From Pseudomonadota bacterium (GTDB lineage Bacteria > Pseudomonadota > Gammaproteobacteria > Xanthomonadales > SZUA-38), in contig JBCCVP010000010.1 of NCBI GenBank assembly GCA_039195135.1, positions 1,215-65,214 of the forward strand: a DNA stretch of 64,000 nucleotides. The letters run 5' to 3'. This document shows positions 8,513-28,100 of the stretch, in pieces. The notes below the pieces were generated by a model that was given only the letters and a program-made list of their open reading frames with translations, ran no database searches and was not told the origin of the DNA. Position 1 is the first letter of the stretch. The number at the start of each line of letters is the position of its first letter. A program made the translations under genes and the position numbers.

Positions 8513-8989
8513 ATGCCACGCAAGCTAAACCTGAAACATCGACCAGGCAGCAGGCCAAAAACGACCAACCAACTTCCCCACTCGCAACTTGACCAGCATG
8601 GACCCGACTCGGTGATCGATAAGCTCCACGATTGGGCGTTTTCCCTGTCGGGCGTGGAGAATCGGAGCAGTCGCATATCTGTTCCGGGTGCCCGTGCTTT
8701 GGTGATGCACGCGAGCATCGAGTGCAATCAGGATGCGTTTATGATCGATCGGGAGTTTGCGCATATTCATCCGCATCCGGACAGCGGAAGTATGCACGTC
8801 ATGCTTGACCCCGAAGACGCGTCGGAAGTTGCTGACAAAGGCTGGGGTGAGGACCATTACCTCGTCACAGCAGGACGGCTTCCCAAGGGGCTTGTGATGG
8901 TCTTTTCTCCTCGTGATGATGTCGAGCTGGATACGATCAAGCAGATCGTCAGGCGTTCTTACAACTACGCTGTGGAAAGACGCGATTAG
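8513..8989 (+). CDS. DUF5519 / 'luciferase'-domain family protein
   Basis: SD AGGAG at 8502 before the ATG at 8513. EFAHIHP..GSMH, GWGEDH and VFSPRDDVEL motifs. Confidence 0.75.
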   Translation: MPRKLNLKHRPGSRPKTTNQLPHSQLDQHGPDSVIDKLHDWAFSLSGVENRSSRISVPGARALVMHASIECNQDAFMIDREFAHIHPHPDSGSMHVMLDPEDASEVADKGWGEDHYLVTAGRLPKGLVMVFSPRDDVELDTIKQIVRRSYNYAVERRD

Positions 8990-9036
8990 AAACTGCGGCA
9001 AACGATTGAGCGTTCGTATCCTGGTCTGGCCGCTTT

Positions 9037-9117
9037 AGCCCCAACATCGTCGTGATTCCAGGCACAACCTCCGTCGCCCACCTGGAACAAAACGTTCGAG
9101 CCTGGGATCACATTTAG
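9037..9117 (+). pseudogene. C-terminal remnant of an aldo/keto reductase
   Basis: Intergenic frame reads SPNIVVIPGTTSVAHLEQNVRAWDHI*, matching the AKR C-terminal SPNxxxIPGTxSxxHLxEN motif. In-frame stop at 9007-9009 and no plausible start. Confidence 0.65.
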
Positions 9118-9148
9118 CCAAGGCCCGCGGGATCGGTACACTTTGCCG

Positions 9149-9883
9149 ATGGAGACAACGCATACCGAAGAAAAGGATGGCGCCGTGGGCCGGGTTGTTG
9201 GCCTCTGGCGCTATCCCGTTAAATCCATGGGCGCCGAGCCGCTGGAGCAGGTCGAGGTGTCCTGGCATGGCCTGGTGGGGGACCGGCGCTGGGCGTTTGT
9301 CAGGCCCAACTCAGCGCGCAGCGGTTTTCCCTGGTTCACGATTCGCCAGCGGACCGATATGAGTCGCTACGTGCCGTCGTTTATCGATCCGCAAAAGCCG
9401 GACACTTCACGCACCGTGGTGACCACGCCGGGCGGCAGTGTTTATGACATTGCCGATGAGGCGCTTGGGCAGGAGCTCAGCGAAAACGGCGTGCGTTTGA
9501 TCAAACAGAGCCGGGGTGTTTTCGACACGTTTCCCCTATCTCTGATCACAACGCAGACCGTCGCCCGGCTGGGCGAAATGGTTGGTCAGTCGCTCGACGT
9601 GCAGCGCTTTCGCCCAAACATCCTCGTGGAAGCGGCCGAAGACACGCCGTTCATTGAAGACACCTGGGTGGGTCACACGCTGCGGCTGGGGGATGTGCGC
9701 ATGCGGGTGGACCAGCGGGATGGACGCTGCGTGGTGATCACCGTTGACCCCGATACCGGCGAGCGAAGCCCGGAGATTCTGCGGACCGTCGAGAGCCAGC
9801 GCGAGGGTTGCCTCGGCGTCTACGGCAGCACCGTGACCCCCGGTCACGTGCGGCTGAACAGTTCGGTGGCTCTGGCAGACTAG
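9149..9883 (+). CDS. MOSC domain-containing protein
   Basis: LWRYPVKSM, GDRRWA, RFRPNI and RCVVITVDPDTG motifs. Confidence 0.92.
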   Translation: METTHTEEKDGAVGRVVGLWRYPVKSMGAEPLEQVEVSWHGLVGDRRWAFVRPNSARSGFPWFTIRQRTDMSRYVPSFIDPQKPDTSRTVVTTPGGSVYDIADEALGQELSENGVRLIKQSRGVFDTFPLSLITTQTVARLGEMVGQSLDVQRFRPNILVEAAEDTPFIEDTWVGHTLRLGDVRMRVDQRDGRCVVITVDPDTGERSPEILRTVESQREGCLGVYGSTVTPGHVRLNSSVALAD

Positions 9884-10704
9884 GGGAAAACCTGCGGCAG
9901 AATCTCGTCGTGCCGTGCCGGGGTTCCCGGCGCAAGGCGGATGGCGTCCTGTGTGATGGTCGGGTCAGCCCCCGGGTGCGGGTGCCAGACGGCGTCGTCG
10001 CCCAGCCAGCGGGTAGAGATGGCAGCGCGGCGCTCGGTTGCGGAGCTGTTGCCCGGCGCCCAGTGGAGCAGCCAGGCCGAGAACACCACGGCGTCGCCGG
10101 CTTTCATATCCCAGCCGATGATGTCGTGGGCCGGGCGGTTGCTTTCGATATCCGGCACCGGTTCCCCTTCCGCCTCGTTGATCCAGTCGGCCGGATGCTC
10201 CTCCCGTTTTCCGAACAGCTCCGGCAGGTAGTACTTTCCGTCGGCATGGGAGCCGCGCACAAACTCCATCGCGCTCTGTTCGATGGTGGCGTCGGTCAGC
10301 GCCAGCCAAACGGAACAGATCTGTTTGCCGAGAAACGGCCAATAGGGCACGTCCTGATGCCAGGGGGTGGCGGCGCTGGTGCCCGGTTCTTTAACCAGCA
10401 GGTGATCGAAATAGAAGCGAACCGCGGAGCTCCGCATGGCCTGCGCTGCCAGCTGGCCGACACCGGACTCAAACACAAAAGCTCGTATCTCGGCGTTTTG
10501 CCGCCACTGGTAGCGGTCGGTAAACAGGCGGTTGGTTTTGGCACCCGGATTGGCGTCGTTTACCCAGCGGCTGGGCTTTTCCATTTGGGCGTCGATCACG
10601 CGATGAATGCGGTCGACCCAAGCGGGATCTACCGCCTGGGGGATTCGGATAACGCCGTCTTTCTCAAAGCGACGGACTTCGCCTTCGGACAGTTTTCGGG
10701 TCAC
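9880..10704 (-). CDS. Phytanoyl-CoA dioxygenase (PhyH) family Fe/2OG enzyme
   Basis: TPWHQD, VWLALTD, GSH, LLHWAPGN and RRAAISTRW. Confidence 0.9.
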   Translation of the reverse strand: MTRKLSEGEVRRFEKDGVIRIPQAVDPAWVDRIHRVIDAQMEKPSRWVNDANPGAKTNRLFTDRYQWRQNAEIRAFVFESGVGQLAAQAMRSSAVRFYFDHLLVKEPGTSAATPWHQDVPYWPFLGKQICSVWLALTDATIEQSAMEFVRGSHADGKYYLPELFGKREEHPADWINEAEGEPVPDIESNRPAHDIIGWDMKAGDAVVFSAWLLHWAPGNSSATERRAAISTRWLGDDAVWHPHPGADPTITQDAIRLAPGTPARHDEILPQVFP

Positions 10705-11877: not shown

Positions 11878-12837
11878 CTACAGCGGGGTGCAGGCCGGCG
11901 GCGCGCCTTTTTGCAGGCCGCCCGTCTGCTGCTCGAAACCGTTCGCAAAGATTACGCCGCTCGGCAGCAGCGCCACGTCGCAGGGTGTGGTTTCGTTTTG
12001 CTCGAGATCAAACTGGATTTCCTGCGTCTCATAGCCATCGCGAATGACGCTGGCGGTGCCGCCGGAAATCACCGTGGCGAGGCCCGAAAAACTACCGCTG
12101 CCCGGCGCGCTGTAGGCGGTGAGGCCGACGTTGCTGCCGATCACCGCCGCCAGTGGGATAGGCTGACTGGACAGGGCGTCGGTGATGGTGCCCGCCAGCG
12201 TCCCGCCCTGGAAGCCAATCCCGGGACCAATCTGGAGGCCGAAGCCGGCATCCTGCGGCAGGCAGTAGAGCTCCCGGTCGTCAATATCGCCACCGTTGAT
12301 AAAGAGCATTTCGTTACGGCACTGAGTGATCTGGATGGCGTAGTCCGCCTCGGCGCGGAAGAAAAAGGAAATTGGCAGAGAAGTTTCTTCGATGCAGCCC
12401 TGTTCGATCGGCTCCAGCGATCCGGGCGCCCCTTCGGGCGGGCCGATCTCGACCAGGCCCGCGCGCTGGATCTCATAGAAGCGATAGAACAGGCCGGCGC
12501 CCTCAAACGGTTCGGCGGTAGTCATCAATATGCCGTCTCCCGGCGAGGTACTCGGAAAGGTGAATTCGTAGACGGCGCCATCGTTGGGAAAATCAAAGCC
12601 GCGAAAGAAAAACCACTCCTCATCGTCCGCCGAGTCGAAATTGAGCGGCAACGCCTCCTGATAGGGCGTGATGGGTGTTGCTTCGGCAAAGCTGTTGTTC
12701 GGCTCAAAGGCATCTGGCGCCGGCGGGGTGACGCCGTCGCAGAAATCTGCGTCGGTACCGGCTCCGGCAGAGGCGGCGGCGGCAGCCAGGCCGGCGATGG
12801 CGAACCAGGTTTGGGTTCGCAGAACAGGGCGGGACAT
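11878..12837 (-). CDS. Secreted hypothetical protein (DxFEPN module, carboxypeptidase-regulatory-like domain, IFANGFE motif)
   Basis: Signal peptide, PDAFEPNNSFAEAT..DDEEWF, GTLAGTITDALSSQPI and near-terminal VIFANGFE. Confidence 0.75.
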   Translation of the reverse strand: MSRPVLRTQTWFAIAGLAAAAASAGAGTDADFCDGVTPPAPDAFEPNNSFAEATPITPYQEALPLNFDSADDEEWFFFRGFDFPNDGAVYEFTFPSTSPGDGILMTTAEPFEGAGLFYRFYEIQRAGLVEIGPPEGAPGSLEPIEQGCIEETSLPISFFFRAEADYAIQITQCRNEMLFINGGDIDDRELYCLPQDAGFGLQIGPGIGFQGGTLAGTITDALSSQPIPLAAVIGSNVGLTAYSAPGSGSFSGLATVISGGTASVIRDGYETQEIQFDLEQNETTPCDVALLPSGVIFANGFEQQTGGLQKGAPPACTPL

Positions 12838-12896
12838 GCAGGATCCTTGAGCGTCGATGTGTGCTGCTCAGTTTAGCGTCTGTTGCGGCTGATACT

Positions 12897-14243
12897 TCAT
12901 GGTTCAAAACTGTCCGCAAAAAGCTTACCCCGCGGCGTGGCCTCAAGATCCAGAACCAGGGGCTCAAACGCCGGCGGCTGCGCGCTGATCACCGCTTCCT
13001 GGATTTCAAAGTCTGGAGACTCGATCGACAGCGCGTGCTCGATGTTGGCCGTGAGTACCAGCTGGTATTCCCCATCCGCCGGATCCGAGAAGCTGCTCTC
13101 ACCGTTGCTGCTGCGGAGAAACGCGCCCACCGGAGCGCCGGTGCTGGCCGTGGAAACCCGGCCGGTCAGTGTATTGATCTGGGCTGTGGAGAAATCCCGG
13201 AACCGTGTCACCGTCAGGTCGAACTGGTAGCGCAGGGGGGCGGTGCCGTCGCACCGCACGATGCGGTAGAGCACCAGGTCCCGCAGCGCGATGTCATCGA
13301 TGCTGGTCTCGGAAATGTTGCCGCCGGGACCTGTGCAGTCGCCATAGCGCACCAGGGGAGTCGCGCCGGGATCGGTAAAACGGCTACCGGAATGACCCTC
13401 TACGCGCACGTGAAAGGTGGGGTCATCGCTCGTGATCGCGATAGAAAAATCCCGGTTGGCCCGATGATTGTGATAGACCCAGTCTTCGTCCTGGCCGTTG
13501 TGGAACGTGTGCTGCTGGGTGTAACGCACGCCGGCCTGACTGCGATAAAGATCCAGTGTGCTGGCGGTGTTTGGCGCATCGTCAGCCTCGAACTGGTCCA
13601 GCGGCAGGTTCTGGCGTTCGGCGGTGCCGGTAAACACCCTTGAGAAAAACTCATTCCCGTCCTGCGGGTCCGTGAGTTCGCGAAAAGAAACCTGGGCGAA
13701 GGGGGTAGCGGACCAGACGCCAAAAAAGGAGACCAGCTCCGCGTCCGGTGGCCGACTTTCCAGTGGGCCGTAGTCGATGGTGTCGATCACGTCGCCAACC
13801 GGGCAATCTGCGCCCGCGGAAAACGTGCTTGCGCAAAGGGTCACGCGAAAGTCTGAGTCGATGGCAAACCCGTTGCGGTTCGGATGGCCGGCGCCGGCCT
13901 CCTCCAATTGGATCCCCAGACTGGTAACCGGGCTGGCCACCTGCAGGTCGAACGACTCCTGCCCGTTGATTGCCAATTCGAACGGGTCCGGCAGCCCGAC
14001 GGTCCACGCGGCAAAATTCAGGGTAGAGGGCGGCAGAGCAAGAAATGTGATGGTCCCCACCGTTTGCGTGGCCGCGGAACCGGGACCGTCGGGCAGGGGC
14101 CCGGTCACGTCCGAGGCGCCGGTGGCCGCCACAAACTCCGCCTGGTCAAAGTACACAAACGTTGTGGGTTCAAACTGCGCGATGGCGACGCCGGTGGGCA
14201 ATCCCAGGAGAGCAGGTAGCAGCGTCATCAGCGGGCCTTTCAT
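12897..14243 (-). CDS. Secreted hypothetical protein (DxFExD module, carboxypeptidase-regulatory-like domain, terminal LFADSFEP)
   Basis: Signal peptide, DQFEADD..QDEDWV, LTGRVSTASTGAPV, ending KLFADSFEP*. Confidence 0.75.
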   Translation of the reverse strand: MKGPLMTLLPALLGLPTGVAIAQFEPTTFVYFDQAEFVAATGASDVTGPLPDGPGSAATQTVGTITFLALPPSTLNFAAWTVGLPDPFELAINGQESFDLQVASPVTSLGIQLEEAGAGHPNRNGFAIDSDFRVTLCASTFSAGADCPVGDVIDTIDYGPLESRPPDAELVSFFGVWSATPFAQVSFRELTDPQDGNEFFSRVFTGTAERQNLPLDQFEADDAPNTASTLDLYRSQAGVRYTQQHTFHNGQDEDWVYHNHRANRDFSIAITSDDPTFHVRVEGHSGSRFTDPGATPLVRYGDCTGPGGNISETSIDDIALRDLVLYRIVRCDGTAPLRYQFDLTVTRFRDFSTAQINTLTGRVSTASTGAPVGAFLRSSNGESSFSDPADGEYQLVLTANIEHALSIESPDFEIQEAVISAQPPAFEPLVLDLEATPRGKLFADSFEP

Positions 14244-14374
14244 GCCCCCATGCTAGAGCACGCGTCACAGCCCGCCAAGCCAACGGCCGGGCCGGCTATC
14301 GGGCGCCCGGTAGCAGCCTTGCCACCCCTCAACCCTTTGATAAGCTGATGGTGAAACGGCTCGGTATACCTGTT

Positions 14375-14680
14375 ATGACTTATTTGCCTTTGTATCTGGC
14401 GACACTGATCTCATCCGCCGCAGCGCCGGCGAAAAGTGACGTGAATGACGCTGTAAAAATGCCGGCTCCAGACTCGAGCCGCTGGATCGTCCTGTCCCTG
14501 GAAGGCAAAACGCCGGCGCAGGCCAAATCCCAGGCCGTTGCCGCCGCCAGGGTGCAGGTCAAACCGGCGCCGGCGTCGCCGCCGCTGGTGGCCACGATCA
14601 CGCCGGAGGGCGCGGTGGTGCTGCATCACGGCGACGCCCAGGTCGAAGCTCAGATCAAACCTGACGTGAAGCCCGAATGA
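14375..14680 (+). CDS. Small exported protein resembling the post-PEP-CTERM-1 type, coupled to the downstream peptidase
   Basis: In-frame ATG at 14375, hydrophobic N-terminus and C-terminal PPLVATITPEGAVVLHH. Stop overlaps the next start (ATGA). Confidence 0.55.
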   Translation: MTYLPLYLATLISSAAAPAKSDVNDAVKMPAPDSSRWIVLSLEGKTPAQAKSQAVAAARVQVKPAPASPPLVATITPEGAVVLHHGDAQVEAQIKPDVKPE

Positions 14681-16908
14681 GGCGCTGGTTTGCCGCTGCG
14701 GCGCTGACGCTTCCCGCGCTGGTTGCCGCGCAGACCGCGGTGTCGCCCCAGGGCAGTGTCGATATCAACCTGCCGACGGTGGCCGCCGGCAGCGTGGGGA
14801 TCGACCCGGCCTTTGTGCTGGATGTGCCGGCCGGTACACGATCCTTGCGCATCGAGCTGGATGGCCTGGGTAATCCCCGGGACCTGGACCTGTTTCTTCG
14901 CATCGGCAGCCCGTTTCCCGACGACATCAACACCTTCAACGACTTCAGCAACTCGGCGGATTTTGTCTCCCAGAGCCTGTTTGAGAACGAGTCGATCACG
15001 CTGGGCGAATACTCCCGACCGGACCTGGCGGGGCAGCGCATATTCATCGGCTTTGCCGCGTTTGAAGGTGCCGCCAGCGCGGCCCGGCTGACGGTGGATG
15101 CCTCCCCCCAGCCCGTGGACCAAGTGCCGATTGTGATCGACTTCGACAACACGCCCAACACGCCCAACTGCGATACCTCACCGTGGAACGACACCACCGC
15201 CTTTAGCCCGGTCGGTGGCAACAATGCCACCACACTCGGCGAAGCCCGCCGCAACGCCATGCGGGAGGCGGCCCGGTTGCTTTCCCAGGAGCTTTACGGG
15301 CCGGTGATGGTCACCATTCAGGCCTGCTGGGATAACCTTGGCGGTTCAGCCAACTCGGCCGTTCTTGCCGGAGCGCGCGGCAATCAGCTGGTCGCGAACA
15401 CACCGGGGCTGCCGGACAATCTGTTTTTCATCCAGGCGGCGGTCACCCGCCGGGCCGGCACCTCCCTCAGTGGCCTGCTGGGTGGTGACCAAACCGGGAC
15501 ACCGGACATTTTCATCGAGTTCAACGCCGACATCGACGGCAGTACGGCCCTGGGCAGCCGCGTGTTTTACTACGGCTTGAACGGGGCCGGGAACACGAAC
15601 AATGACTCCGACTTTGTTTCCGTCGCCCTGCACGAAATCACCCACGGCATGGGGTTTGTCTCCACCATTAATGGGGACGGTAGCCTGACGGGCAGCCTGC
15701 CGGACGTGTTTACCGCCAACCTGATCGACAACCGCAACGGCGAGGCCATCTCCCTCATCGACTCAACCGTCGGAGACGATCAGCGCCTGGACACGATCAC
15801 CTCCGTCAGCGGTCTTCAGTGGTCCGGACCGGAGTCTTCGATCTCCGAGCGTAATCTGCAGGCCACCAGTAGCGATGCCTACGTGGTCATGAATGCGCCG
15901 CTGACCTATCAGCCCGGCTCGTCCGTTTCCCACGTTGCGCAAAACTACTGCGAGCTGATGACCGCCAACACCTCCGTCTGCGTCGACTCGCCGTTCCGGC
16001 AGCTTGCGCTGTCGCGCCCCATGCTCAACGAGGTGGGCTGGGCGCCCGGGCCAGACCGGCCGGTCTATGTCGGCCTGATGTTTGACCGGTCCCGCAACGG
16101 TCACGGCTTTGAGCTCACGCTGGGCGGCCAGGACGCGGACGGCAACGACGTTTACGTGCTCACCTTTTACTCGTTCGAAACGCTGGGCCGCGCCCCGGAG
16201 TGGTTCCAGGCGATTGGCACGGTGGAGAACGGCGTCTTTTCCGGCCAGCGCAATGCAGACCGGATCGGATTTGCCCAGTTCCTGTTTGACGATGCCCGCA
16301 CCCCTCCGCAGCAGGCCAACCCGGACGAGCCGGGCCAGGTGGTGCTGAACTTCAACCGGCCGGAAACCCTGGCGGCCTGCAACGATGGGGTGGACCGCAG
16401 CGGCGTGGCCAATCTGGCGGTGCTGCAGTTTGTACTCAGCGGCCAGGTGGACGAATGGTGCGTGGAGGCGCTGACGCTGCTGAGCAGCCGGCCGGCCAGC
16501 GACTTTGGGGGCCTGTGGTTTGCCGGTCAGGAAGATCAGGGCTGGGGTTTTACGCTTGAGAACATCGATAACGGCGATGCCACCACCACCTTGTTTGTGC
16601 TGCTCTACGTGTACGCAGCCGACGGTACCCCGGTCTGGTTTTTTGGCCTGGAGACGTTTTCCAGCCTGGCCGGACCGCTGGAGTTTGAGATGTTCCAGCG
16701 CACCGGATTTCCCCGGCTGGCGGTCAACGGCAACCTGGAGGACGAGGTGGCTGGAAGCATGAGTCTCACGCTCGCCCAGCCTTCCATGGACCTAAGCGCC
16801 GGCAATCGCGCCACCGTCAACGTGACCTATCAGGGCGCGGAGGGCGGCGACTGGGTACGGGCCGACGTGCCGATTCAGCGCCTGTCGCTCGAGCGGACCG
16901 ATCGTTGA
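14677..16908 (+). CDS. Secreted zinc metallopeptidase-like protein (PPC-like domain, HEXXH domain, two C-terminal repeats)
   Basis: Signal peptide, DLDLFLRIG (PPC-like), PVGGNNATTLGEARRNA, VALHEITHGMGF and GSSVSH. C-terminal repeats GLMFDRSRNGHGF and GLWFAGQEDQGWGF. Confidence 0.78.
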   Translation: MRRWFAAAALTLPALVAAQTAVSPQGSVDINLPTVAAGSVGIDPAFVLDVPAGTRSLRIELDGLGNPRDLDLFLRIGSPFPDDINTFNDFSNSADFVSQSLFENESITLGEYSRPDLAGQRIFIGFAAFEGAASAARLTVDASPQPVDQVPIVIDFDNTPNTPNCDTSPWNDTTAFSPVGGNNATTLGEARRNAMREAARLLSQELYGPVMVTIQACWDNLGGSANSAVLAGARGNQLVANTPGLPDNLFFIQAAVTRRAGTSLSGLLGGDQTGTPDIFIEFNADIDGSTALGSRVFYYGLNGAGNTNNDSDFVSVALHEITHGMGFVSTINGDGSLTGSLPDVFTANLIDNRNGEAISLIDSTVGDDQRLDTITSVSGLQWSGPESSISERNLQATSSDAYVVMNAPLTYQPGSSVSHVAQNYCELMTANTSVCVDSPFRQLALSRPMLNEVGWAPGPDRPVYVGLMFDRSRNGHGFELTLGGQDADGNDVYVLTFYSFETLGRAPEWFQAIGTVENGVFSGQRNADRIGFAQFLFDDARTPPQQANPDEPGQVVLNFNRPETLAACNDGVDRSGVANLAVLQFVLSGQVDEWCVEALTLLSSRPASDFGGLWFAGQEDQGWGFTLENIDNGDATTTLFVLLYVYAADGTPVWFFGLETFSSLAGPLEFEMFQRTGFPRLAVNGNLEDEVAGSMSLTLAQPSMDLSAGNRATVNVTYQGAEGGDWVRADVPIQRLSLERTDR

Positions 16909-16998
16909 CCGGGCTTAATGGTCAGAACTCCGTTAGCTTTTCATCAGGACCTTTTGTGGCACAGCGCCTAGACTTCAGACTGCAGTGAGCGGCGAGGA

Positions 16999-17301
16999 AT
17001 GGATCTCATGAAATACCGACAAGTCTGTCTCTGCGTTACGGCCATCCTGATCGCGGCGGCAGTAGCCGGCCCCGGCGCGGCGCAGCAGTCGAGCGGCGGC
17101 GAGTTCACCATCACCCGCAGCGTGATTGCCGGCGGCGGCGGCAATCAGTCCGGTGGCGAATTTGCCGTGACCGGCGTTACCGGTCAGGCGGCGGTGGGGC
17201 AGTCCGAGGGCGGCGAGTTTTCCCTCAAGGGCGGTTTTTTCGCCAGCGACGTGCAGCCCTTGAGCGGCGAAATCTTCCTGGACGGTTTCGAGGCACGCTG
17301 A
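16999..17301 (+). CDS. Small secreted Gly-rich protein with three GGEF repeats and terminal IFLDGFEAR
   Basis: SD GAGGA, signal peptide, SGGEF/SGGEF/EGGEF, ending EIFLDGFEAR*. Confidence 0.8.
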   Translation: MDLMKYRQVCLCVTAILIAAAVAGPGAAQQSSGGEFTITRSVIAGGGGNQSGGEFAVTGVTGQAAVGQSEGGEFSLKGGFFASDVQPLSGEIFLDGFEAR

Positions 17302-25170: not shown

Positions 25171-28100
25171 TCAGTCGCGCTCGATGCGGTAGCGCACGGC
25201 GGCTTTGCTTTCGTCGCCGAGCTCGGTCTCGGCGGTCCAGGTGTCGGAAATGCGGTAGCGCAGGCGGATCAGGCGGATCGGCTCCAGCAGGTCAACGGTG
25301 TAGCCCACGTACAGCCGGGGCGAAATCTGTTTGCCGATAGCCAGCGCCAGGCCCCCAAGCTCCTGGGTGAGCGACACCTGGGGCAGCACGCCGCCATCGC
25401 CGACCCCCCGCAGCCGCCGGTTACCCTGGGTCAGCGCCAGGCTGAGGGCTGCCGCCGCCAGCTGGTCTGACTGGTTTTCATCCAACCCCCCGCTGGCCCG
25501 CTGGCCAAGCACAAGCAGGGCGAGCTGATCGGATTCGTTCATGGGTGGTTCGGATTCGAGTACCGCGGACAGGTTCGACGTGCGGCCGGTGACCCGCACG
25601 CCGACCCGGGTGTCGCCGACCTCCCGGTAAGCAAACAGGTCGATGCTTGGGTCGTTCAGCGGTGTTTCGGTGTAGACGAGCTGCCCCCGCTCAATCGTGA
25701 GCTGCTGACCAAACGCCCCGTAGGTGCCGGTGAGCCGCAGCTCGCCGCTGCCCAGCATCGGCTGCCCCGGCCGCTGGCGAACCCGCAGGGTGCCGTCGAG
25801 CTCTCCCTTCAGACCAAACCCCGTGACCGGAATCGCCTGCTCAAAAATCACCCGCACGTCGAGGCTGGTGTCGGTCCGGGTCGGTCGGGGCGTCTGTTCC
25901 GGGTCGTCCACAATGACCACGTCCGGACTTGCCTGCACGCCGCTTGCCGTTGAGGTGAGGGCGAGCAGCCCCCGGTTGACCACCACGTCGCCGGTCACCA
26001 TCAGGGTCTGGGCCGACGCAAGCAGTTGGAGGTCCGGACTCGCTACAAGGCTCAATGCATCGCTGTCGCTGAGCAGCAGTTCGCTGCCTTCCAGCCGGCC
26101 GGCCACCTCTAGCGGTGCGGCAACCGACGCGGTGCCGGAGATTCGTGCCTCGCCCTGGCCGGAGCTGATCCGACCGGAAAACTCCCCCGCGCCGGCTTCC
26201 GGCAGCTCCAGCTCAAAGTTGATCACGGGCTCGATGTTCAGCGTGGGCACGCCCACCGCCGCATCGTCCAGCCGGAACGTGCCGGTCACCTGCGGCGCGG
26301 TCAGCGCGCCGCGGGCGGTCAGGTCCGCCCGGGCTGAGCCGCGGGAGATATTCAGACTGTTGGTGAGTGCAGAATAGGCGCTTAAGTCTTCGGCCAGCAC
26401 CGTAGCCGCCAGGTCGATACCGGGCGATCCCAGCAGGTCGACCAACTCGCCGCTGGCCGCCAACTTGCCCTCCGGAAGCTGCGCCTGCGCTGTAAGCTCA
26501 GCCCGGTCAAAGGAACCGTCAACGGAAACGGACAGCTGCTGAACCCGCTGGGGATCCTGTGCACCTCCCGGCAGCGCCAGCGAGTGCAAGAACACAGATC
26601 CGGCCAGCGAATCGTCCGCTGCGTTGCGCGTCGCCGTGATTTCTCCTTTGAGTGGCCCCGAGAACTCAAGCCCCGCCGGCGCATCCGGCCACCATGGGCG
26701 CCAGGCCAGGTCCTCGGAGCGGGGCACATCCACCTCGCCGGTGAAGGCCCAGGCGCCCGGGCTGCGCCGCGCGCTGAAGCAGGCGGACAGGCCGGCGCCC
26801 TGCAGGCAGCTGCGAGGGATCGTCAGCGAGTCCGAGCTCAAATCACCGCTCCACGGCGCGGTGCCGCGCAGCGGTGCGGTGTTGGTCGGGGTCAGCTCGA
26901 GCTCCAGGCCGGCATAGCTGTACTCCCCGTCCACCCAGCGACCGCGTCCCTCGACGCTGGCCATGCCCCGTTGGCTCTCCACCATGCCCGAAAAGGTGTG
27001 CTCCCCGGGTGAGCCCTGAACGTCCAGCGTCATACCCTCGATCAGTTCTGCCCCAACCCGGGCATCGCCGGCGCTCGCCTTCAATTCGTCAGGGCCTAAC
27101 TGCAGGTCCAGCCGAGCCACGGATGTGTTCTGATACTCAAGATCGACGGCCGACAACTCACCCAGGACAGCGTGCAGACCAGTCACCGGAATTTGCGGGT
27201 TCAGGCTCAGCTCCCCTTTTACCGCGCCGGCAAGATCAGGCCAGAACGCGCTCAGGCTCGCCACGTCGAGATCCGCGAGAAGCTCCGACGGTGATTTTAG
27301 ATCCAGCGCCACGCGGTTGTCGGCGCCGGCGCTCAGCGTCAGCAGCGCCGACTGCGGTGCAGCGCCGGCAAGCACCACGTGCCCGTCCATGGCCAATTCG
27401 GAGCCCGCGGTTTGCAGTGAGGTCTCCACCCGGGTTTCGGCAACGCCATCGTTAAGCGCCGAGCGCGATCTCAGTTCTCCAGCAAGGGTGTCGTCGAGCC
27501 GCGGATCGATCAGCGCCAGGGGAAACGACACAAGAGTCAGATCCAGGTCAGCCTGCAGCTCGTCCAGCGCGATGATGCCGCCGCCGCTGAGCGACACGCC
27601 GGCACCTTCAACGCTTAGCTGCCGCAGGTCCAGCTGCCTGAAACCCTGGAGCTGCAGCCGACTTTGCAGGGCAAGCGGTTCCGCTGGCGCCCGGCCGTCG
27701 AGCTGCGCCGTCAGGTCCGCAGTCAGGGTCGCGTCCAGGGCGGTAAACGGTCCCGCAGCGGTCAGGGTGCCAGTCGCGGTCTGGTGGTCGGCGGCCACCT
27801 CAAACGTGATCTCGCCCGCCAGCAGTTCGCTCGCGCTGAGTCGCGCATTGACGTTTGTCGTAAGGCCGGGCGTGCTGGCTGCCGCCGCAACGGCCCAGTG
27901 AGGTGCCTCCCAGCGCAGCTCCAGCGGGTCCACCGTCAGCTGTTTTGGCCCCTGCCGTCCACGCAGCGAGCCGCTGGAGGCGAGCAGGTTCCCCTGCAGG
28001 CGCAGAGCGGCGGACTCATCCTCGGCGCTGAGTTCCAGACTGAGGTCGTGCTCGAAGGGCGGCTCCGGAGCCAACGTCCCTGAGGTGCGGAGTTGACGTT

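Follow-up and report, generated by a model that had tools for sequence, protein, structure and literature searches.

A short, portable F-E-ending tag on exported proteins of one gammaproteobacterial order and its tentative link to an exosortase H-associated membrane protein and type II secretion

The window analyzed here is a stretch of 64,000 nucleotides from a Pseudomonadota genome of the order Xanthomonadales (assembly GCA_039195135.1, 5.48 Mb in 305 contigs; contig JBCCVP010000010.1, positions 1,215 to 65,214). A preliminary description had singled out three clustered genes in it, each for a protein with a signal peptide and each with the same short motif at or near the C-terminus, and all three open reading frames (ORFs) are indeed present. 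The motif, [LIV]-F-x-[DNS]-[GS]-F-E, is referred to below as the GFE tag, and we hold with high confidence that it is real, modular and linked to export. The three genes and their tag copies are as follows (aa, amino acids).

11878..12837, minus strand: ORF for a 319-aa exported protein with a signal-peptide-like N-terminus and no Pfam or NCBIfam family
11932..11955, minus strand: sub-terminal tag copy VIFANGFE of the 319-aa protein, 17 residues ahead of the stop
12897..14243, minus strand: ORF for a 448-aa exported protein of a 4-member family, with a signal-peptide-like N-terminus, ending LFADSFEP-stop
12903..12923, minus strand: tag copy LFADSFE of the 448-aa protein, followed by P and the stop
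16999..17301, plus strand: ORF for a 100-aa exported protein made up of a signal peptide, three SGGxFx[LIV] repeats, a linker and the tag, ending IFLDGFEAR-stop
17272..17298, plus strand: tag copy IFLDGFE plus AR of the 100-aa protein

None of the three full-length proteins belongs to a Pfam or NCBIfam family above threshold. Whether a hidden Markov model (HMM) for the motif already exists had been left open; we find none in Pfam or NCBIfam that matches the tag at E values up to 10, a limit at which the 40- and 100-aa tails of the three proteins also gave zero NCBIfam matches. In the family of the 319-aa protein, the 17 residues past GFE form an extension shared by all four members (KGxPxAC-T-[LP]-L-stop), which closes in a Cys-x-x-x box that reads CTPL in the window copy. 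The motif of this protein is thus near the C-terminus as first described, but what trails it is conserved and not junk. Three 440-aa homologues carry a CARDB domain between body and tag, and the window copy is without it. All 4 members of the 448-aa family end in [LM]F[AS]D[GS]FE, and this tail is kept in 4/4 at 43-51% identity, while the 20 residues ahead of it diverge. An AlphaFold2 (AF2) model of the 448-aa protein is poor (mean pLDDT 61) and leaves residues 439-448 unstructured with a pLDDT of about 30, which is weak evidence because the alignment holds only 4 sequences.

The 100-aa protein is one of four tagged exported paralogues of about 95-100 aa in its own genome (the window copy on C10; the others at C8:26903-27193, C17:33-320 and, approximately, C41 14925-15212), all built of three SGGxYxL repeats ending in GGFW/F, a short linker and the tag. 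It has a weak, sub-threshold match to the candidate phyla radiation (CPR) pilus protein PamT (NF058579, E 3e-6). We rejected this mini-protein as a part of the machinery; its four paralogues are confined to the window's own genome (G000 in our numbering of genomes) in the comparison with G018, the smallest complete tag-positive genome (2,441,650 bp), which has none.

A scan of the whole genome in six frames, over stop-to-stop ORFs of at least 60 aa, returned 119 matches to F.[DN][GS]FE, of which 87 sit 0-5 and another 10 sit 6-12 residues from the stop. This places 97 of the 119 within 12 residues of the stop, against a background in which the last 18 aa hold only 12.4% of residues. The reversed motif gave 7 matches with 0 near the stop, four permutations gave 3 each with at most 1 near the stop, and variants with one position changed (F to Y; E to D or Q; G/S to A) gave 1-10 matches with 0 near the stop. 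The C-terminal enrichment that the preliminary description had proposed to look for is therefore present, at 97/119 compared with 3-7 matches in total for the reversed and permuted motifs. Over 130 terminal copies the consensus reads (P/S/G)-(D)-x-[L47 I36 V35]-F-[A52 S19 R14]-[D69 N26 S25]-[G73 S54]-F-E128. The motif is followed by 0 residues in 38 of these copies, 1 in 23, 2 in 26, 3 in 15 and more in the rest, the trailing 0-12 residues being mostly polar, and the statement that neither a transmembrane (TM) helix nor a basic tail follows the motif is borne out.

With a home-made gene call (4561 genes), a stricter motif pattern identifies 120 tagged genes, the shortest product having 61 and the longest 4540 aa; a few false positives, such as the end of a TonB receptor, enter with the looser pattern. 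When the tag was removed, the C-terminal 150 aa of these 120 proteins fell into 77 BLAST components, 56 of them singletons, so that the tag cannot be the closing part of a single domain common to them all. Both the proposal of a portable element, which now follows at least 77 unrelated C-terminal contexts, and the remark that the 100-aa protein is otherwise unlike its two tagged neighbors agree with this result. The cargo of the window's own genome consists mostly of hydrolases, adhesin-like repeat proteins and unknowns.

Signal peptides and genes were called by heuristics of our own, with a strict and a permissive rule, and not by SignalP. Of the 114 tagged genes whose N-terminus is complete, 62 qualify under the strict rule, compared with 695 of 4253 untagged genes; the permissive rule accepts 99/114 and 1963/4253, respectively, and several of the 15 tagged genes that it misses show obvious signal peptides by eye. 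The enrichment among Sec substrates that the preliminary description had proposed to test is thus found with both heuristics.

The tag is not confined to the C-terminus. In 6 proteins a copy lies 1-4 residues past the predicted signal-peptide cleavage site, and in about 12 proteins it is internal and between domains, preceding an OmpA-like domain, a DUF4397 domain (C1:13802-17170 of the window's own genome), a Peptidase_C25 domain or an Lcl_C-like region. DUF1800 proteins account for two of the N-terminal cases and show this placement in G009 and G018 as well. Because of these N-terminal and internal copies and of the conserved extension in the 319-aa family, a free carboxylate right after GFE is not needed. 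Hence, the earlier interpretation stands insofar as the element is portable, enriched at the ends of exported proteins and without an HMM; it is refined in that a free C-terminus is dispensable, and the role in secretion, anchoring or strand complementation that it gave the element is putative.

As observations in their own right, Tat-signal DUF1501-like partners accompany the DUF1800 proteins whose tag stands at the mature N-terminus (G000 C39:23026-26134, C6:18063-21216 and C174:2810-5930; G018 1673538-1676715 and 1965388-1968676), and in both genomes C-terminally tagged genes are only 2-4 genes away from these pairs. The internal copy ahead of Peptidase_C25 belongs to a 1290-aa protein (G000 C91:13016-16888), in which the tag LFQSSFE, near residue 887, precedes the peptidase domain (residues 940-1287, E 1e-55) by about 50 residues. 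Two exported proteins beside the tagged genes of the window are themselves untagged and are listed for context only.

14677..16908, plus strand: ORF for a 743-aa exported metalloprotease-like protein, with a sub-threshold match to NF038122
18399..19520, plus strand: ORF for an exported DUF4397 protein (Pfam)

The match of the 743-aa protein to NF038122 (E 5.9e-10) scores 39.6 bits where the cut-off is 80. The protein has an HExxH-like HEITHG sequence; it is untagged despite tagged genes on both sides.

We considered whether the motif could simply be an integral strand, or a folding or stability cap, of the domain that precedes it, with no role in sorting. Hydrophobic positions do alternate just upstream of the tag, and a D/N-G pair favors a tight turn; however, the tag follows 77 unrelated C-terminal contexts, occurs also at mature N-termini and in linkers, is unstructured at a pLDDT of about 30 in the one weak, 4-sequence model, and tracks the presence of specific genes across genomes, as described below. 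This possibility, which the preliminary description had named as one that would count against its reading, is disfavored by the unrelated contexts and the N-terminal and linker copies, and we regard it as very improbable.

Three sets of genomes served to follow the distribution of the tag: 41 relatives within the order, a sample of 251 genomes from that order and a class-wide sample of 300. The genome counts come from a DNA pattern recognizing only Gly at the fourth position. The class tallies include G078, G334 and G180, which are flagged as unpublished and of which none matters individually. The exact pattern F-x-[DN]-G-F-E-stop was found in 35 of the 41 relatives, in up to 65 copies, against 0-1 for the backwards control. 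The tag-negative relatives are G015, G026 and G035, with 0-1 matches to a looser, stop-less pattern, and G036, with 0. G009 was rejected as a further tag-negative contrast; it has 42 copies that never stand directly before the stop, being followed by 1-8 extra residues or placed N-terminally. Carriers of IFADGFE-stop include Dokdonella (among them D. fugitiva), Rudaea, Aquimonas, Tahibacter soli, Pseudofulvimonas gallinarii and Marinicella, together with metagenome-assembled genomes of Ahniellaceae, Wenzhouxiangellaceae and Lysobacteraceae; Dokdonella fugitiva, Pseudofulvimonas gallinarii and Tahibacter soli are cultured carriers.

Outside the order, no genome of the class sample has more than 2 exact matches. 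G275 was rejected as a tag-positive outlier, since 10/10 fetched matches look like chance or housekeeping genes. A long form, IFADGFESGDTSAWSxxVP-stop, occurs at 8/10 fetched loci of G211, and Thermoanaerobaculia have a 20-residue form, IFADGFEWGSTKFW-stop, plus an N-terminal copy. Also outside the order, G343 has 26 exact matches and G342 has 5. A literature search, with supplementary files not covered, returned no description of the tag.

A gene product that could read the tag was sought by several routes. The 350 neighbors of tagged genes in the window's own genome yielded only large paralogous families (TonB receptors, ECF sigma factors and kinases). Peptidase_C25 was rejected as a reader: it is present in 29/41 relatives but absent from the tag-positive families f5 and f6, including the complete genome G018 and the tag-rich G029, and in all it is missing from 8 tag-positive relatives and present in the tag-poor G020. 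Peptidase_C13 was rejected likewise, being present in 22/41 relatives and absent from f3, f6, f7, f8 and f9, including the tag-rich G022 and G033.

The same distributions bear on a mechanism in which a clan CD cysteine peptidase, either gingipain/PorU-like (C25) or legumain/GPI8-like (C13), would use the tag for cleavage or transpeptidation, cutting after D/N/S with [GS]-F-E-x(0-4) as the leaving group. A P1 residue of D, N or S with a small P1' and an aromatic P2' resembles legumain-type sites, domains of both families are encoded in the window's own genome, and in one of its C25 proteins an internal copy immediately precedes the protease domain. Nevertheless, with neither C25 nor C13 found in whole tag-positive families, such cleavage is largely refuted as an obligate step, and as an account of the tag we consider it hardly credible.

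GspD, the secretin of type II secretion systems (T2SSs), is over its cut-off in 40/41 relatives, all but G015, and therefore does not discriminate; it was set aside as a discriminator, although it is over cut-off in all tag-positive relatives. A DUF4394-like protein with an IPTL-CTERM domain is conserved in 36/41 relatives, the exceptions being the four tag-negative genomes and the tag-rich G022; it was dropped as a universal receptor because, besides G022, it was not found in G343, G342 and G211.

The candidate that we retained came from a comparison of G018 (about 21 C-terminal and 2 N-terminal tags) with the proteome of the window's own genome. The comparison gave 1035 good pairs, of which 153 combine an N-terminal hydrophobic segment with few TM helices; Pfam annotation covered 143 of these 153, the other 10 genes spanning two stretches. 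Among 11 shared exported proteins with no Pfam family was one that matches NF041730, 'exosortase H-associated membrane protein' (also PF28117), with an E value of 1.4e-42; we call it XrtH_assoc and exosortase H itself XrtH. None of four other conserved exported unknowns, used as controls, is absent from all four tag-negative genomes. Separately, both genomes encode, directly past pilQ, a lipoprotein that is about 920-1000 aa long and carries Ig-like repeats (G018 L103:11382-14150; G000 C78:9820-12831), at 39% identity between the two and with no family above threshold.

The gene tracks the tag closely. Among the 251 genomes of the order, with tag-positive defined as at least 8 motif matches, NF041730 is present in 152 tag-positive genomes and absent from 3, which are 70%, 87% and 71% complete; below 8 matches it is present in 41 and absent from 55. 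Conversely, 55 of the 58 NF041730-negative genomes have at most 5 matches. In the profile of motif-rich genomes that the preliminary description had suggested, NF041730 is thus a co-occurring gene, found in 152/155 of them. The contrast is sharp within families. In f2 only 1 of 33 genomes carries NF041730, and that genome, G438, is the sole tag-rich one (68 matches versus 0-5); in f12 the 9 positives have 0, 17, 19, 25, 25, 40, 41, 51 and 57 matches, and none of the 23 negatives exceeds 4. Of the 41 relatives, only the tag-negative G015, G026, G036 and G035 and the 70% complete G010 lack NF041730.

The four tag-negative relatives also lack XrtH (TIGR04177), as does the tag-rich G034; XrtH is present in G438, G388, G347, G486 and G351. 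Outside the order, the tag-positive G343 and G342 both carry NF041730. In the class sample it occurs in 11/300 genomes, including G211, the sole real tag-positive there. XrtH is over cut-off in three Thermoanaerobaculia genomes with long-form tags, and in G341, a member of that group of which one locus was read in detail, a weak XrtH_assoc-like gene stands beside XrtH. In this sample the XrtH system looks necessary, but not sufficient, for the tag.

The genomic setting of XrtH_assoc points toward type II secretion. The copy of the window's own genome and its XrtH are placed as follows.

C69:20144-20779: XrtH_assoc, between purL and gspE (NF041730 match C69:20183-20731, E 7.6e-46)
C4:60394-60855: XrtH (TIGR04177, E 6.2e-58, over cut-off)

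In G018 the order is purL, XrtH_assoc, gspE, gspF, xpsH, xpsI, xpsJ, a PilM/PilN-like L gene, xpsM, xpsN and gspD, and XrtH_assoc overlaps gspE by 4 bp. By tblastn, the arrangement purL - XrtH_assoc - gspE is present in 11/11 genomes (the window's own, G018, G025, G031, G034, G343, G438, G347, G388, G475 and G344), and in every relative NF041730 and GspD lie 9-11 kb apart on the same contig. Past gspD, two genes without a family, of 136 and 532 aa, close the operon of G018 (L095:8320-8727 and 8753-10348). XrtH is unlinked to XrtH_assoc in this order, lying at 26.5 kb in G018 and on C4 in the window's own genome, whereas in other Gammaproteobacteria and in Thermoanaerobaculia XrtH_assoc stands directly past XrtH. 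Around XrtH itself (G000 C4:60388-61775; G018 26009-27901) we observed an aroB-like gene before it and a gene for an NAD-dependent epimerase/dehydratase after it, neighbors that raise the possibility that the XrtH pathway includes a step linked to sugars.

An AF2 model of XrtH_assoc is confident (48 sequences, pLDDT 93, pTM 0.87) and comprises helices 14-34 and 36-54, strands 61-65, 68-75 and 88-94, and helices 102-112, 117-150, 152-162 and 166-192. The strands form a three-stranded sheet between helices, and the positive-inside rule (RRRIR past helix 102-112 and NRR past the last helix) suggests four TM passes and a periplasmic position of the sheet. A Foldseek search of the model against the PDB gave zero matches down to the E-value limit of 0.001. 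When XrtH_assoc was co-folded with the C-terminal 45 residues of the 448-aa protein, the score was 0.00, and with no controls this result counts neither way.

The proteins that carry the tag also fit a T2SS. A Pfam family was assigned to 13 of 18 tagged proteins of G018: three Peptidase_S8, a Peptidase_M28, a GSDH, an Exo_endo_phos, an InhA-like MAM region, a SpoIID, two DUF5122 propellers, a CCP_MauG, a PKD and a Flg_new_2. These are the kinds of protein usually exported by T2SSs. It could be a core part of the T2SS, such as the PDZ region of GspC, that reads the tag directly, with no role for XrtH. Such a reader would agree with the presence of a T2SS in all tag-positive relatives and with the GspC of TIGR01713 type in G018, and the PDZ domain of Vibrio EpsC is reported to be needed for secretion of VesB (PMC12369372). 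Yet GspD is over cut-off in the tag-negative G026, G035 and G036 too, the tagged f8 genomes have only one GspD-type secretin, and the copies at N-termini and between domains speak against a reader that needs a free C-terminus, which leaves a core T2SS reader improbable in our estimation.

Together these data lead us to suggest, tentatively, that the GFE tag may well be a modular sorting tag tied to an XrtH/T2SS pathway, with XrtH_assoc as the candidate reader. The tag, carried by about 120 Sec-exported proteins of the window's own genome, would be read after export into the periplasm and would belong to the XrtH pathway as it is wired in this order. XrtH_assoc, a predicted four-helix inner-membrane protein encoded by the first gene of an Xps-type T2SS operon, would be the likeliest reader; it might capture the exposed tag, possibly by strand addition, and pass the cargo either to the T2SS or to XrtH-dependent surface retention. 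A narrower form, in which XrtH_assoc is an adaptor that supplies in trans the membrane anchor that exosortase cargo has in cis, strikes us as possible but unlikely, and the hypothesis that combines direct reading by XrtH_assoc with the T2SS route stands no higher. The tie of the tag to the XrtH system, a strong correlation with a suggestive operon context, we hold with moderate confidence. The co-occurrence and the operon position are observed, and what we infer is a functional basis for the co-occurrence, direct binding of the tag by XrtH_assoc, a periplasmic position of its sheet and exit through the T2SS. Where the preliminary description knew of no machinery for the motif, the field is now narrowed to one candidate, an exosortase H accessory protein heading a T2SS operon.

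Several points weigh against this suggestion. The catalogued partner of XrtH_assoc is XrtH with its IPTL-CTERM cargo, and IPTL-CTERM has a TM helix where the tag has none. In other lineages, including the long-form G211, XrtH_assoc stands beside XrtH and not beside a T2SS, and in G342 an ABC transporter follows it. XrtH co-varies with XrtH_assoc, so that the two are inseparable except in the tag-rich G034 and in G342, where XrtH was not found. The departure of tagged proteins from the periplasm is presumed. NF041730 is also not sufficient: 41 of the 193 positive genomes of the order have fewer than 8 matches, and elsewhere in the class G140, G322, G130 and G058 have both XrtH and XrtH_assoc and no tags. 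Few losses of it are seen, they follow clades (chiefly f2 and a part of f12), and Fisher p-values overstate the case because related genomes are not independent. The Gly-only DNA pattern behind the tag counts and the heuristic calling of genes and signal peptides must be set on the same side, as must the small number of genes that were profiled, only a handful beyond NF041730 and about 10 candidates in all.

Several of these points would also suit a real sorting or docking tag with some other reader, for which the match with XrtH would reflect shared ancestry and lifestyle, with joint loss in streamlined or host-associated clades. The clustering of absences in f2 and part of f12, the 41 tag-poor genomes with NF041730, the tag-free genomes with XrtH elsewhere in the class and the short list of profiled genes all fit such a history. 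It accounts less readily for the contrasts within families (G438 in f2; in f12, 8/9 positives but 0/23 negatives are tag-rich), for control genes that show the same pattern in 0/4 cases and for the recurrence of the link in G211 and Thermoanaerobaculia. We therefore think another reader unlikely, if a serious alternative.

The tag might instead dock proteins on a surface layer made of the XrtH-anchored IPTL-CTERM protein, in the manner of dockerin and cohesin or of S-layer attachment, and not be a secretion signal at all. That protein, of about 300 aa and DUF4394/DUF6923-like, has the distribution given above, with losses in the same four tag-negative genomes, and the occurrence of the tag at either terminus is as expected of a docking peptide. 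An IPTL-CTERM domain is borne by the S-layer protein of Methylomirabilis (PMC8671808). Set against these points, the conserved protein was not found with the query used in the tag-rich G022, nor in G343, G342 or G211, and docking of this kind seems doubtful to us.

If the proposed link between the tag and XrtH_assoc holds, the tag would be the first portable linear signal linked to a T2SS with an identified reader and would explain how more than 100 enzymes per genome are routed to the outside or the surface in one order. We know of no portable linear signal for T2SS cargo, and cargo recognition by these systems is for this reason a long-standing open question; the hand-over of exosortase-type cargo across the outer membrane is another that the finding touches. 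With a 7-residue tag on 2-3% of the proteome, a single candidate reader gene and cultured carriers, both questions become testable. The tag would in addition be a compact handle for annotating secretomes in Lysobacterales-type bacteria and possibly for engineered secretion.

Among known systems, the nearest at hand is that of exosortase H, which the literature search shows to be itself uncharacterized. The window's own genome has XrtH, XrtH_assoc and two proteins with IPTL-CTERM-like tails (g3353 and g4014, neither with GFE), and the tag, as sampled, occurs only alongside this system; the co-occurrence of the tag with an exosortase H accessory gene is what is new here. The tag nevertheless differs from exosortase H cargo. 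The IPTLxxWG-type motif and TM anchor of the IPTL-CTERM sorting domain, which we take to be TIGR04174, are absent from all tagged proteins, as is the basic cluster, and about 120 tagged proteins stand against 2 of the IPTL type. Unlike its arrangement elsewhere, XrtH_assoc is here detached from XrtH and heads a T2SS operon.

A portable C-terminal tag on many unrelated exported proteins of one genome is also the hallmark of PEP-CTERM with exosortase A and of LPXTG with sortase. In contrast to these, the GFE tag has no TM segment or basic tail, is not always terminal and has a free end right after the motif in 38/130 copies. More generally, the tripartite arrangement of motif, TM helix and basic cluster that defines PEP-, IPTL-, GlyGly- and MYXO-CTERM and LPXTG signals was not found with the tag, and no sorting-domain HMM matched it. 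The C-terminal domain (CTD) of the type IX secretion system (T9SS) with PorU/PorV is likewise a TM-less C-terminal signal on Sec-exported cargo, which has the outer membrane to cross. A folded domain of about 70-100 aa makes up this CTD, whereas the GFE tag spans 7-9 residues, the C-terminal 150 aa of tagged proteins are not mutually homologous, and PorU-type C25 does not track the tag; CTD-type models gave zero family matches on the tails, T9SS genes not having been searched for. The C-terminal signal of type I secretion, whose cargo has no N-terminal signal peptide and leaves the cytoplasm directly, differs again, in that tagged genes are enriched in signal peptides by both of our rules. The NCBIfam 'ultrashort' motif NF050076 (sort_motif_YLP), compared by description only, is similarly short, terminal and TM-less but is a different motif.

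The closest characterized parallels are GlyGly-CTERM with rhombosortase and MYXO-CTERM with myxosortase, whose cargo is reported to exit through the T2SS (PMC6219818, PMC13393428, PMC11980579). The likeness lies in one kind of terminal tag shared by many Sec-exported enzymes, together with a T2SS route and a membrane partner of its own, the latter two being what we propose for the GFE tag. The tags of those systems are tripartite, membrane-anchored and cleaved by an intramembrane protease, whereas the GFE tag is soluble, 7-9 residues long and sometimes N-terminal, and shows no sign of cleavage.

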